This document shows positions 18,161 to 22,899 of a stretch of DNA of 64,000 bases, in pieces (the first letter of the stretch is position 1; each line of letters starts with the position of its first letter). The stretch spans positions 1,977,656-2,041,655 of the forward strand of contig OZ253447.1 in assembly GCA_965261115.1 (NCBI GenBank), read 5' to 3'. The DNA is from Candidatus Poribacteria bacterium. Lineage in GTDB: Bacteria; Poribacteria; WGA-4E; WGA-3G. Both the position numbers and the translations under genes were made by a program. Under the pieces are notes generated by a model. It did not search any database and had not been told where the DNA came from. It saw only the letters and a list, made by a program, of their open reading frames with translations.

Positions 18161-19582
18161 TCAACCCGCGTTTAGGGCGGGTGGCACCTCAGCAAGGGAA
18201 TACGCTTGCGCTTTCGCACCAGTTTGTCGTTGATACCATTTCATCCATTCCGCGCCTTCTTTTGCAGCACCTTTTACTGTGCCTCTTGCTTCTTGGTAAC
18301 AGGAGATGAGAGCAGGTATAATCACAAAAAGGATCGGCATAGAAGCGAGAAAATCGCCATATATGAAAATAAAGGCGAGAAACCAGCACGCCAAATGAAC
18401 TATAAGAGACATCGGATGGTGTGCCATGAATTGCAGGGTCTTTTGTGCAATCTTGAAATAAGAATCGGCTTGCGCGTTTTTCGATGGTGGCGGTTCCTCA
18501 AAAGTGTCTCCCTGTCTTATCGTTTCCTGTTGCCCTTGATACCACAGCATCCACACTCGTTGTCTATCGGCAATGCCTTTCAGGTTGCCCCTCGCCTCTC
18601 GGTAACTAATCACGAAAACAATAAGAGCGATCCAAGGTAGCATTTCTCCAAACATACCTATTAACTCAAACATTTCAAAAATATCGTCAGGAACTTTTCG
18701 TGGCGGGAGCGTCGTGAAGAATAGAAACGCGTACCCCGCAATCCAACACACAAGATGAAGAATAAAAGGCTTCAGGTTACGAACCATAAAAGATAGGGTC
18801 TCTGGAATCTCCCCAAAATAAGAATAAGCCTTCATATTTTCCGATGATGGTGGCTCTTCAAAAGCACCTTCCTGAGCAATCGTTTTGATGTGTCGGGCGT
18901 ACCACTTCGTCCAGATGCCTCTCTCTATCGCGACACCTTTCAGGTTGCTTCTCGCCTCTCGGTAACTAAGCACAAGCGTGAATATAGCCGCGGGGATAAC
19001 GATTTCGGGAAGTGAACGCACAAAATTGGTTGGGTCAAATAGCACAGGAAGCGCGGACAGCGTAAACCAACATACGAAATGACCGATTAGGAGGGACGGG
19101 TGCCGAAGCATAAATAGCACTGTTTTTCGTGCGGATATGAAATAGGTGCCGCCCGGTATATATTCTGATGACGGTGGTGTCTCGTAAGTGCCCCGCTCAG
19201 CCTTTACTAACTGTTGTCGCTCGTACCACTGCATCCACACTTTTCGCTCTGTTGTAATACCGTTTCGGCTGCCCCTTGCCTCTCTATAACTAAATGCAAG
19301 TGCCAGAGGGATAACAATCATGAAAACGCCATAATGGAAATGGAAATCCCTGACGACTTCCTCAACAATGAGTGAAAAGGCTGTAACTAATTTCCAGAGG
19401 GACCCAGGTAAATCCGCAAAGGTTCCGTTTGCTGCCTCAACCGCATCTGGTAATACACCGTATACAAAAAGATCATCTGACATGGTAATTGAGGCAGAGA
19501 CCAATATGCCACAGGCAAGCGTATAGACGATAAAAGACATAGGGTTCCAAAGCATAAATAACAACGCCTGTCGGGTTTTCAT
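18161..19582 (-). CDS. Hypothetical membrane protein made of four ~110-aa repeats
   Basis: (S/C)Y(R/Q)EARG..KG......W..WY..Q motif occurs four times, each preceded by two hydrophobic segments. Confidence 0.8.
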   Translation of the reverse strand: MKTRQALLFMLWNPMSFIVYTLACGILVSASITMSDDLFVYGVLPDAVEAANGTFADLPGSLWKLVTAFSLIVEEVVRDFHFHYGVFMIVIPLALAFSYREARGSRNGITTERKVWMQWYERQQLVKAERGTYETPPSSEYIPGGTYFISARKTVLFMLRHPSLLIGHFVCWFTLSALPVLFDPTNFVRSLPEIVIPAAIFTLVLSYREARSNLKGVAIERGIWTKWYARHIKTIAQEGAFEEPPSSENMKAYSYFGEIPETLSFMVRNLKPFILHLVCWIAGYAFLFFTTLPPRKVPDDIFEMFELIGMFGEMLPWIALIVFVISYREARGNLKGIADRQRVWMLWYQGQQETIRQGDTFEEPPPSKNAQADSYFKIAQKTLQFMAHHPMSLIVHLACWFLAFIFIYGDFLASMPILFVIIPALISCYQEARGTVKGAAKEGAEWMKWYQRQTGAKAQAYSLAEVPPALNAG

Positions 19583-19631: not shown

Positions 19632-20414
19632 TTAATAAATGCGGAACAATGGCGGAGACACGCCAAAAGGGACACCTTGTGCTTTCGCTTCTTGTTGTTG
19701 GCAATACCACTCCGCCCACGCCTGTTGTACTTTGGCTACGCCTTTCACAGTACCTCTCGTTTCTTGGTAACTGGAAATGAGACCGAATATAGCAGCAACT
19801 ATAGCGAGAAAAGATACAACCGACAAAAAATTGCGAACGAAGTTCTCTGCTGTCCGAACCACATCAGCAAGATCTGGAAGTACTGTTATAAGGATTAGTA
19901 AAAAGCAAGTAAGGAGCCAGCATAAGAAGTGAATGAGGGGTAACATCGGGTTGCGAATCATGAATAACAGTGTTTTTCGTGCTTTCCTGAAATAGGAGTT
20001 GACTCGCATATTTTTCAATGGGGGTGCGGGTTCCACGAAATTGTCGCCTGCTGCTGTCGCTTCCTGTTGTTGACCGTGCCATTCCATCCATATCCGATGC
20101 TCATCACCAATGCCTTTTAGATTGCCAATTGCCTCTCGGTAACAGATAAGGAAAGGCGGCATAACGACAAGAACCCAAAATCCAGTTCTCGTTAAATCTT
20201 CTACAATTTCGTCCCAAATAATTGAGGCAGCTTTTCGATAATCGCCGATAGACACAGGCGGTTCCACAATTTTAACAACGTAGGGCCACGTCCCTTCTAT
20301 GAATGGATCGTCCGTCACGATGCCCCAAGCAGCGAGCAAAAACCAACACGTCAAATGAACGATGAGAGGTATTGGATTCCGAAACATGAACAACAACGTT
20401 TCTAAGACCTTCAT
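19632..20414 (-). CDS. Hypothetical membrane protein with two copies of the same repeat
   Basis: CYREAIGNLKGI...WMEWHGQQQE and SYQETRGTVKGV...WAEWYCQQQE; FMxRxPxxLxxHLxCW motif. Confidence 0.8.
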   Translation of the reverse strand: MKVLETLLFMFRNPIPLIVHLTCWFLLAAWGIVTDDPFIEGTWPYVVKIVEPPVSIGDYRKAASIIWDEIVEDLTRTGFWVLVVMPPFLICYREAIGNLKGIGDEHRIWMEWHGQQQEATAAGDNFVEPAPPLKNMRVNSYFRKARKTLLFMIRNPMLPLIHFLCWLLTCFLLILITVLPDLADVVRTAENFVRNFLSVVSFLAIVAAIFGLISSYQETRGTVKGVAKVQQAWAEWYCQQQEAKAQGVPFGVSPPLFRIY

Positions 20415-20423
20415 AACACCACC

Positions 20424-21863
20424 TTAAGGCGAAACAACAGAAACACGTGCCAGAAAAGCATTGGCTTTCTGATCGTCGGCACTCGTAGCGACCAATTTGA
20501 AGTGCCGACCTCGACTGAAATTGTGAAAAATGTGTCCGATACTACCGGGTGAAACATTCCATGCACCATCCAGTGCTGCATCAGCACCCTCTTTTGAGGG
20601 AAGTTCGGTGTCGTCATGAAACAACTCAAACGTCCCAGCCGACTCGCCTACACCTACCTGTATCTCAATGTGAAGGCTCCCACCACATTCAAACGGTGTC
20701 GTATCAATTTTAACAACTGTATCATCTGGAGTGTCAGTACTGGATGTGCCATAAACATGCAAAACCGCCATCAACGCTGTCCCCAAGCTGATCGGATTTC
20801 CATCTAATTTTGATTTTTTCCCTACACGAGTGCGTCTAGCTTCAAATGCTGCTACAGTATGCTTTAGCACCGTTAGGTATGCGTGCGACGGGTTCTTGTA
20901 AGGCAGTGCCGACTCCGGCTGATGCATAATGACCTCCGCATCCGGAGTCAACGCCAAAATATCCACAGAGTCAGTGTAATGCTGTTGCATTTTTTGAGCC
21001 ACAAGGCTCGGCATCTCGCCTTTCGCACCACTGATCAGTTCTGGCAATTCCCTGAGAAGCACCCATGTATTGACAAACTTCTCGTTGAGTGTCTCGATCA
21101 CTTCTGAATCGGAGAGCGGACCCGCCCTGAAATATTTACCGTTCGCTCAGCAAGATTCATCGTCTAAGCAGCCCCAGACAAGGATCGCATGAATCGGGCG
21201 GTGCGTTGCTTTCGCACGTTCAACTGCGCTCTCAATCGGCAGCCAGTCAATCTTCGCGAATGGGTAAAACTTCAATGCTAATGAACGGCGTGCTGCTTCC
21301 GCTGTGATAAAAGTCTCCCACGCAATTTCATCTTGGTCGGTCTCATCCGTAGCGAGGAGTTCCATACGTGGTACAAAGACCATATCTGCACCACCACAGG
21401 CGTTGATGTCAACATTGCTATTGCGTGCAGGTAGTGCCAACGAAAACGCACGAACCGTTCCTCTTTTCAGATTGACTAACACCTCTCCGACATATTGCGA
21501 TGGGATAAACTTGGCTTCGGACTCCCGTTCCCACCCCGGTTCAGCATTCTCTTGTTGCCACTCCTGATGGGCATCACTTCCCAATGTAAATTCGGCATGT
21601 ATTCGGAAAGTGATCTCTGCATAATCTGAAGAATATGCCCGTAAGCACGCATAAGCACCCTCCTCGCCGTTACCTAAATCAGCCCTTGCCCCCGGGTGAA
21701 ACTGATAAAGGAAAGGAACAATTCTATGTGGATCCAGTGCCCATACATCCCCTACTGCTACAGTTGAAGGCGGAAGAAATATCTTGAAATCTTCCGTCCT
21801 GTATTCCTTGACCGGATGGTGGCAACTTGGGTTAGATATAATACGGTGGTTACTTGGTTGCAT
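20424..21863 (-). CDS. Selenoprotein N (SELENON)-like protein, 479 aa, with in-frame TGA (Sec) at 21147-21149
   Basis: ORFs 21147..21863 and 20424..21101 are in one frame, joined by TGA plus 15 sense codons: WGCLDDESC-U-ANGKYFRAGPLSDSEVIETLNEKFVNTW. This aligns gap-free to the recalled human [45 protein letters not shown], GAxACL, NVD and PxMEL blocks are also shared. Confidence 0.88.
21106..21146 (-). promoter_or_regulatory. Bacterial-type SECIS hairpin immediately 3' of the Sec UGA
   Basis: UGA-GCGAACGGUAAAUAUUUC-AGGGCG-GGUC-CGCUCU-CCGAUUC: 6-bp upper stem, G-starting 4-nt loop 25 nt after UGA, possible lower stem GAACGG/CCG(A)UUC. Confidence 0.7.
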
Positions 21864-22899
21864 TTTCTAATTCCTTAATCCTACCCCAGAACCTTATCTG
21901 CTTCTCCGCACTCGGGGATACTGAGAGAAATTCCTCCGGCATCCACTCAAGATGACCAGGCACCAATCCTCCCGGCACCTCAATGGGTTCTCCACCGCCA
22001 ACGTCATCTGTCTTGGCAATACAGATGACTGAGTTATCAAAAATCTCATCTGCGGGAATCCGCGCCCCGCCGAGCAATCTTTCGACCAATTCTTCTGGCG
22101 TTTCAGTTAAAATATAGGCAATCCATTTTCCACGCGGAGACCAGACCGGTGAAGTGATTAATGTCCACCCTTCATACAACCGGGTGAGTTGACGCATATT
22201 TTTGCCATCTATGTCAATACTGAAAAGCGCATGTCCGCCAACAGCATCGTTCGGTGGGACAAAAGCGATCTCTTTACCATCAGGCGACCATGCACACGCA
22301 CCGGAAGATGTATCTGTGAGCTGCTTTACCCCTTTTCCTTCAGCACTCATGACAAAAATAAAGGATCCTATTTCTGCATCTTTCCTTTTTGCACTAAAGG
22401 CGATCGATTGGCTGTCTGGCGACCAAGCCGGTCTTTTGCAGCCCCCTCGGTTCGTCAGCCGCTTCACATTTGCGCCATCTGCATCTATTCTGTAGATGTC
22501 CATCTCCCCATCGCGTTCGGAGATGAATGCAATCCACTTCCCATTCGGAGACCAAGCGGGCCATATATCTCTACTCTCGTGGAACGTCAACTGACGTTCT
22601 ACATTTGTTCTCACATCCCTCACATAAATATCAGGATCCCCATCCTGATTAGAACCATGGGCAATGGAATGTGCATCAGGCGACCAACTGAAGCTCCCTA
22701 TACGTCCAGGGTCCACCATCAATTCTTGAAGGAGTTCTCCGTGGGTATCTATGAAATGGATGGAACGCGCTCCATTCCCTCTGGGGAGAAAAGAAATGAT
22801 CTCAGCCTCTGCCGCCCACCCATCGCTGACGAATAGGCTACCACTTAGCAACAACGCCATCCCTAATATCACATAGGTTCGCATGCGTTTCATACGCAT
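21850..22899 (-). CDS. Secreted TolB-like PD40-repeat beta-propeller with C-terminal SVSPSAEKQIRFWGRIK motif
   Basis: Signal peptide; repeated PAWSPxGxxIAF motifs; overlaps the next gene start by 14 nt. Confidence 0.88.
   Translation of the reverse strand: MRMKRMRTYVILGMALLLSGSLFVSDGWAAEAEIISFLPRGNGARSIHFIDTHGELLQELMVDPGRIGSFSWSPDAHSIAHGSNQDGDPDIYVRDVRTNVERQLTFHESRDIWPAWSPNGKWIAFISERDGEMDIYRIDADGANVKRLTNRGGCKRPAWSPDSQSIAFSAKRKDAEIGSFIFVMSAEGKGVKQLTDTSSGACAWSPDGKEIAFVPPNDAVGGHALFSIDIDGKNMRQLTRLYEGWTLITSPVWSPRGKWIAYILTETPEELVERLLGGARIPADEIFDNSVICIAKTDDVGGGEPIEVPGGLVPGHLEWMPEEFLSVSPSAEKQIRFWGRIKELENATK

Follow-up and report, generated by a model that had tools for sequence, protein, structure and literature searches.

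A putative bacterial-type selenocysteine insertion element inside the coding sequence of a selenoprotein N-like gene of Candidatus Poribacteria

Within one gene family of a Candidatus Poribacteria genome, TGA appears to be used in two ways: it lies in frame inside all 13 paralogues, presumably as a selenocysteine (Sec) codon, and it is the terminal stop of 4 of the 13, so that context must decide how it is read. What that context consists of is the question raised by one of these genes, on the minus strand of the window, by which we mean the whole stretch of 64,000 nucleotides analysed here (GenBank assembly GCA_965261115.1, contig OZ253447.1, positions 1,977,656 to 2,041,655). Sequence comparison confirmed its product as a homologue of animal selenoprotein N (SelenoN), and shortly after the in-frame UGA its mRNA is predicted to fold into a small hairpin. 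The original prediction took this hairpin to be a bacterial-type selenocysteine insertion sequence (SECIS) located inside an animal-like selenoprotein's open reading frame (ORF), an assignment that the SelenoN homology, the Sec machinery of the genome, conservation, covariation and synonymous constraint all support. We put the probability that the hairpin is a bacterial SECIS (bSECIS) to which the genome's own SelB would bind at roughly 85%. The gene and the parts of the element are as follows (positions are those of the window; MFE, minimum free energy).

20424..21863, minus strand: SelenoN-like selenoprotein gene, 479 codons, predicted Sec at codon 239, stop TAA
21147..21149, minus strand: in-frame UGA, putatively Sec; TGA at this column in 136 of 139 family members read
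21129..21146, minus strand: spacer GCGAACGGTAAATATTTC, 18 nt, codons A N G K Y F, by direct reading
21123..21128, minus strand: 5' arm AGGGCG, codons Arg-Ala, part of the MFE structure
21119..21122, minus strand: apical loop GGUC (Gly codon GGT and the C of Pro), by direct reading
21113..21118, minus strand: 3' arm CGCUCU, codons Pro-Leu and the start of Ser, by direct reading
21106..21112, minus strand: proposed 3' half of a lower stem, CCGAUUC, with its partner GAACGG at 21139-21144

In the mechanism that we propose, a ribosome meeting the UGA at codon 239 of the SelenoN-like mRNA would have before it, 21-38 nt downstream, a stem-loop with a stem of 6-7 bp and the loop GGUC. The C-terminal domain of SelB, carrying Sec-tRNA(Sec), would bind this stem-loop and deliver selenocysteine, preventing termination by release factor 2, and the product would be a full-length redox protein of 479 residues whose thioredoxin-like domain holds an SC-U active site. 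Because the element lies within the ORF and the same nucleotides encode L/F-R-A-G-P-L-S, the choice of codons, and of some amino acids, would be shaped by the RNA.

The hairpin AGGGCG-GGUC-CGCUCU begins 18 nt past the UGA, as had been claimed, with six base pairs including one G-U. It is present in the MFE structure that RNAfold gives for the window copy, with pair probabilities (49-nt context) of 0.94-0.97 in the upper stem and 0.85-0.94 in the lower. The rule used by bSECISearch calls for an apical loop that is small and whose first or second position is a conserved G, and such a G is found in 125/125 unique Sec sequences of the family, with GGUC as the loop in 81 of them. The UGA-to-loop distance in the window copy is 24 nt, within the 16-37 nt given for bacterial SECIS elements in a passage of PMC10778597. 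Of the 125 sequences, 13 have a loop that begins at +22, and the other 112 one that begins at +26-28.

Conservation among TGA-containing homologues, on which the claim depended, is pronounced. A stem of at least 6 bp is found in 118/125 unique TGA sequences, against a background of 26.6% of 55334 other in-frame sites in the family genes under the same flexible search, and a stem of at least 7 bp in 68% against 12.4%. Across 95 unique sequences, aligned without gaps, the spacing from UGA to stem is identical in every one, and pairs 22-27:32-37 are 92.3% paired. The helix 21-27:32-38 is 91.7% paired, compared with 87.2 +/- 0.4 in shuffles (0/500 reach the observed value) and with 73.8% at most for slid versions of the same helix. 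Double changes occur at 4/7 pairs (24 cells): pair 26:33 is found as C-G, U-G and U-A, and pair 27:32 as G-C, A-U and G-U, with U-A in L147. Some of these changes couple the protein to the RNA, in that Ala to Val comes with a silent CCG to CCA, Pro to Leu with GCG to GCA, and Pro to Gln with GCG to GCT.

A single consensus structure for the whole family proved too simple, as sub-families use shifted registers. Paralogues with RAG[VA]LS or RAV[AV]LS in place of RAGPLS have the register shifted by 2 and loops AGGU or AGUU, and the RARVLN sub-family likewise forms a shifted-register hairpin at the same distance. A Planctomycetota subgroup of CGT type has the stem 15-21:27-33 and the loop CGUGC, with C-G/G-C swaps between members, and in L150 the GGUC loop is formed anew by GCG GTC, read in another codon frame.

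The lower stem proposed in the original prediction, GAACGG/CCG(A)UUC, fared differently. It is present in the window copy but unconserved, with 67.5% of cells paired over the 95 sequences; of its six pairs, three are missing in 42-53 of these sequences (7:43 in 53 and 9:40 in 42), and in most orthologues C38 is paired with G21 in place of the lower stem. We rejected it as a conserved feature.

Selection at the RNA level is seen most directly in the codons. Among 48 orthologues of 54-96% protein identity, the synonymous codon diversity H at L-R-A-G-P-L is 0.05, 0.12, 0, 0, 0 and 0.08, compared with a mean of 0.46 over 146 conserved fourfold or sixfold degenerate codons; the hairpin codons form the lowest six-codon window of the gene, and 0/100000 random six-codon draws match them. 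In 32 other paralogues, taken as a second set, the diversity is 0.365 versus 0.586 (p 0.002). The loop codon GGT is invariant in 48/48 orthologues and the 3' arm codons are CCG in 47/47 and CTC in 44/46, despite fourfold and sixfold degeneracy, while the orthologue variants AGA, GTG, CTT and CCC all preserve or improve pairing. The stem Arg is AGR in 112/125 unique sequences. In GC-rich copies, whose GC content at third codon positions (GC3) is 0.81-0.93, it is AGA in 8/8 as against 5/349 Arg codons elsewhere in the same genes, and the loop Gly is GGT in 7/8 as against 22/215. When the MFE of 100 sequences was compared with that of synonymous recodings, a test of only moderate power, z was below 0 in 98, with a median of -1.78 and p <= 0.05 in 45%.

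The stronger statement that the peptide RAGPLS had itself yielded to RNA structure stands in part. Amino-acid changes do track the stem, but RAGPLS or RAGPLA is also found in the Cys-type proteins P0155, P0165 and P0167.

Several observations weigh against the bSECIS reading, beginning with the window copy itself. Its 57-nt fold has a z of +0.85, with 165/200 shuffles folding equally well or better, and synonymous recoding gives a z of -0.98 (p 0.16). At the place of the G21 that pairs with C38 in most orthologues it has C21 (TTC, Phe), so its stem is one pair shorter than in most of them. A hairpin of equal quality in the fixed register follows 4520 of the 241283 TGA triplets of the genome (1.87%), and the rate is identical after TAA, TAG, TGG, TGC, TGT and TCA. 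As a single sequence, then, the window hairpin is not above chance, and its significance comes from the comparison of homologues only. Rfam, searched at the gathering threshold over the whole window and at E <= 10 over 20950-21300, returned two chance-level matches and no SECIS family. The family sequences share ancestry, and the counts given above overstate independence because the sequences are related by descent. One copy, L073 (G026:C2:5461000-5463500), keeps the TGA with a broken hairpin (GGT CAG TTC). The TGA is spanned, at 90-99% likeness, by contigs from the metatranscriptome-labelled runs X15, X16, X17 and X18, which carry the orthologue-type G21 but as assemblies cannot show transcription, ends or recoding.

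The foremost alternative, quite improbable as we judge it, is that the hairpin is a by-product of coding: the codons for L-R-A-G-P-L-S would happen to self-pair, giving an RNA structure without function. Since the amino acids fix most of the paired bases, which fall at first or second codon positions, the peptide R-A-G-P-L predisposes to a stem, and even versions recoded synonymously at random reach about -5 kcal/mol; yet the third positions that the protein leaves unconstrained are nearly frozen here and nowhere else in the gene, and the rare AGA and GGT persist in genes of high GC3. Although 55% of the Sec sequences are individually non-significant in the recoding test, amino-acid replacements come with compensating changes in the opposite arm, and sub-families with other peptides (RAGVLS, RAVALS, RARVLN) still have a hairpin at that distance, with its register shifted. 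The retention of RAGPLS/RAGPLA in the three Cys-type proteins named above belongs on the side of a by-product, as does the sole Cys homologue with DNA, the metagenome contig L079, which still makes the 6-bp GGUC hairpin with C22-G37 replacing A-U. The L079 hairpin shows no excess stability over synonymous recodings (z +0.79), and L079 could be a recent Sec-to-Cys convert. In the proteins, a departure from R-A at codons 7-8 is found in 4/8 non-Sec forms versus 8/125 Sec forms.

A bSECIS requires a SelB to bind it, and the host genome, a single 6.67-Mb contig, encodes the whole set used as the host-genome criterion for bSECIS (selA, selB, selC and selD). The scores of selA (605 bits), selB (338 bits) and selD (360.7 bits) are all above the curated cut-offs, as are the 77.5 bits of selC (tRNA-Sec), which adjoins selB. 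SelB, encoded at G000 C1:4984907-4986802, is full-length, covering profile positions 1-579 of 581. The genome is rich in predicted selenoproteins: selD is itself interrupted by TGA, and one in-frame TGA each is found in six genes of AhpC/TSA type and in a formate-dehydrogenase-like (fdhA-like) molybdopterin gene. In these selenoprotein genes, hairpins follow the TGA codons at distances similar to that in the SelenoN-like gene, with loops that begin GG (UGCC-GGUCU-GGCA in the fdhA-like gene).

The resemblance to Escherichia coli fdhF also held. In the MG1655 record (UGA ... GUU GCA GGU CUG CAC) the apical loop is the identical GGUC, and both elements lie within the ORF directly 3' of the UGA, with a short stem and a loop encoding Ala-Gly-(Leu/Pro); the fdhF nonamer GCA GGT CTG is found in L081, L082 and L093. 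The two differ in that the loop is at +22..+25 in fdhF and at +28..+31 here, 6 nt farther from the UGA, and in that the SelenoN-like stem is a plain helix of 6-7 bp whose 5' arm shows no evident bulged U. Nothing conserved in the SelenoN-like family corresponds to the long lower helix of fdhF, and the host protein family is a different one. As an RNA element the hairpin would be of a known kind, the bSECIS, in a host family that seems undescribed in the literature searched.

A hairpin in this place could in principle work without SelB, as a general element that slows termination or promotes read-through, like the selenocysteine redefinition element (SRE) of human SELENON (SEPN1), or as a determinant of mRNA stability. 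The SRE is mutated in SEPN1-related myopathy. In SelenoN, a hairpin just downstream of the TGA aids Sec insertion (PMC12839072), and the human SRE, which occupies the same stretch, promotes UGA recoding and gives some Sec-independent read-through without a SECIS, according to passages of PMC4561486. Like the bacterial hairpin, it is a coding-sequence hairpin immediately after the homologous Sec-UGA of a homologous protein. A passage of PMC3541580 assigns the patient mutations G463V, R466Q and R469W/Q to the SRE, over codons +1 to +7 after U462; SRE codon +7 (Arg) is the codon that opens the bacterial stem, a likeness of position only. The human element differs in being a helper alongside a 3'-untranslated-region kink-turn SECIS, SBP2 and EFSec, and is not itself a SECIS; Rfam showed no eukaryotic-type SECIS in the window. 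We regard a SelB-independent role as quite improbable for the bacterial hairpin, given the full-length bacterial SelB encoded in the genome, the fdhF-type GGUC loop at bSECIS distance and the GG-loop hairpins of the other selenoprotein genes. The loop sequence itself is, moreover, under selection beyond stability, and L150 rebuilds it in another frame.

The gene that carries the element was read as two ORFs on the minus strand, 21147..21863 and 20424..21101, which share a frame interrupted solely by the TGA at 21149-21147. The motif around the Sec codon is ...WGCLDDESC-U-ANGKYFRAGPLS..., within the read-through translation ...HAILVWGCLDDESC-U-ANGKYFRAGPLSDSEVIETLNEKFVNTW.... Searches of the window protein against Pfam, NCBIfam and PDB sequences gave nothing meaningful. 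A HMMER scan of 1.84 billion representatives gave 505 relatives at E <= 0.001, of which the majority stop exactly at query residue 238, indicating that gene callers cut these genes in two at the TGA. Among the matches that span the site are animal proteins: P0209 (wombat, phmmer E 2.6e-26), P0240 (Nematostella, 9.3e-23) and P0282 (Eptatretus burgeri, UniRef name 'Selenoprotein N', 3.5e-18). BLASTP aligns the window protein with the hagfish P0282 at 30% identity over 294 aa (E 5e-32), and the alignment crosses the Sec site. The TGA falls at the active-site position, aligned with the SCUG site of animal SelenoN, SCUG being the SelenoN redox motif (PMC12839072). The window copy has SCUA, and exact SCUG is found in 10/13 paralogues. 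At the same site, homologues have Cys or Sec: TGC in L079, Cys in the CC-type proteins P0147, P0155, P0163, P0165 and P0167, and Sec in animal SelenoN. P0176 and P0196 are further Cys-type proteins.

An AlphaFold2 model built from a 46-sequence alignment (predicted local distance difference test score, pLDDT, 86; predicted template modelling score, pTM, 0.76) shows one continuous fold across the TGA. A beta-alpha-beta thioredoxin-like unit at approximately residues 224-345, whose best PDB match is a Thioredox_DsbH domain, is followed by a C-terminal beta-sandwich; the fold search was used solely for naming domains. The beta-sandwich (residues 366-476) is elsewhere fused to Redoxin, AhpC or GPx-type domains (P0122-P0136), and some paralogues, such as L123, have it twice. 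With animal and algal SELENON the bacterial protein shares a FRIHAEF-type N-terminal domain, the thioredoxin-like domain and Sec at the same place. It differs from the animal protein in the extra C-terminal beta-sandwich, in the SCUA of the window copy and in having no EF-hand: Pfam reports no family in the window protein, and in the alignment the bacterial proteins are without the region that bears the EF-hand-like stretch of P0209 and P0282. A further difference from animal SELENON lies in the multi-copy arrays of one genome and in paralogues with signal peptides or fused AhpC/TSA domains.

The window copy starts approximately 45 residues later than its orthologues, and L029 has an extra ...VRVHAHWEPIADATF... 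segment. The ATG of the window copy (window 21850-21900) overlaps the end of a neighbouring beta-propeller-like gene at 21850-22899, and the copy may be 5'-truncated.

That the TGA is a true stop, leaving two genes or a pseudogene beside an irrelevant or terminator-like hairpin, is extremely improbable: gene callers do split these genes, most database matches end at residue 238, the window copy is short at its N-terminus and some family copies have extra stops, but the frame is continuous across exactly one TGA in hundreds of copies from two phyla, homology to the single-chain animal SelenoN crosses the site, the thioredoxin-like domain is predicted with high confidence to extend across it, and L079 has Cys there.

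To judge from these alignments and codons, the bacterial SelenoN-like family is a large, uncurated family of predicted selenoproteins in two phyla, plus metagenomes. A scan of the phylum gave matches in 131/176 genomes, and the number of TGA codons is exactly one in all but 8 of the matches listed. In Planctomycetota, 14/401 genomes of the phylum and 28/339 of the class match, each site-spanning match with one TGA, and the Planctomycetota metagenome-assembled genome L078 also carries a Sec form. No Cys form was found in the Planctomycetota phylum and class scans (401 and 339 genomes). A scan of genome contigs for Cys forms gave a single locus, itself a Sec form, and a scan of metagenomes yielded three Sec forms besides a single true Cys form. 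The three of the 139 members read that have no TGA at the site are one TGG (L058), one TGC (L079) and one internal-deletion artefact (L059). L058 (G025:C1:2214500-2216600) is a TGG point variant with an intact hairpin, and in L059 (G135:C167) the deletion fuses the Sec region to the C-terminal domain; these two account for the matches of the phylum scan that had seemed to have no TGA. The family protein P0138 has W at the Sec position; its source contig was probably translated under a genetic code in which TGA means Trp, and some public predictions probably hide the Sec codon in this way. Algal SelenoN is, according to a passage of PMC7539508, likewise almost exclusively Sec-containing. Our literature search, with subscription papers and supplements outside its reach, returned no paper describing bacterial SelenoN homologues, and in the text matched from a 2026 review of the prokaryotic selenoproteome 'selenoprotein N' occurs once, with none of those passages on SelenoN.

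The further members of the family and the other selenoprotein genes of the genome lie outside the window at the following positions.

G000 C1:1894557-1905091, 2744411-2751210, 2757825-2759078, 1144166-1145740, 5864986-5867085, minus strand: twelve further SelenoN-like paralogues, all with TGA
G000 C1:4035918-4037186, 780361-780735, 1678688-1679509, 6130728-6131099, 4163458-4163844, 1637815-1638150, 4073587-4074510: other TGA-containing selenoprotein genes (fdhA-like, AhpC/TSA-type, selD)

Six of these paralogues stand in a tandem array and three form a group. Signal-peptide-like N-termini are seen in some, and paralogue 2758163 is shortened by further stops. L003, L108 and L109 (the paralogue at 5864986-5867085 and orthologues) have a C-terminal stretch resembling tetratricopeptide repeats and an AhpC/TSA-type thioredoxin-like domain, the motif of which is W-C-G-F-C in L109 and a degenerate W-N-S-F-C in the G000 copy. 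In the window, the adjacent minus-strand ORFs 18161-19582 and 19632-20414 encode internally repeated, membrane-like proteins with the recurring motif ...SYREARG(N/T)(L/V)KG...(E/Q)W(Y/H)..QQ....

The shared position of the bacterial hairpin and the human SRE invites an evolutionary hypothesis. Mariotti et al. 2015 proposed, in passages of PMC4561486, that the eukaryotic hairpins by the Sec-UGA of selenophosphate synthetase (SPS) genes (SRE and hymenopteran readthrough element, HRE) are descendants of bSECIS elements. Their passages treat SPS/SelD, name SEPN1 only as a characterised SRE and contain no bacterial SelenoN, and the family described here would be a second gene with bSECIS-bearing Sec forms in bacteria and SRE-bearing Sec forms in eukaryotes. 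By extension, the animal SELENON SRE might be the evolutionary remnant of a bacterial SECIS: SelenoN would have moved between bacteria and early eukaryotes when already Sec-encoding, and the SelB-binding hairpin would have been retained and demoted to a helper once a 3'-untranslated-region SECIS took over. We regard this as a tentative idea that is rather doubtful at present. If it is true, the bacterial family, with two phyla, up to 13 copies per genome and nearly always UGA, would supply the ancestral state that has been missing, and the hypothesis of Mariotti et al. would become testable base by base on the best-studied SRE.

Here, we describe a large, uncurated family of predicted bacterial selenoproteins homologous to a human disease protein, with a putative SECIS whose codons are also those of the human SELENON SRE, which offers a concrete test of the descent of the SRE from a bacterial SECIS. 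With more than 100 variants in three structural registers, the family is a natural data set for an RNA stretch that would serve as SECIS and coding sequence at once. The hairpin could help to annotate these genes correctly, and for studying the human protein biochemically a soluble bacterial SelenoN would offer a tractable model.

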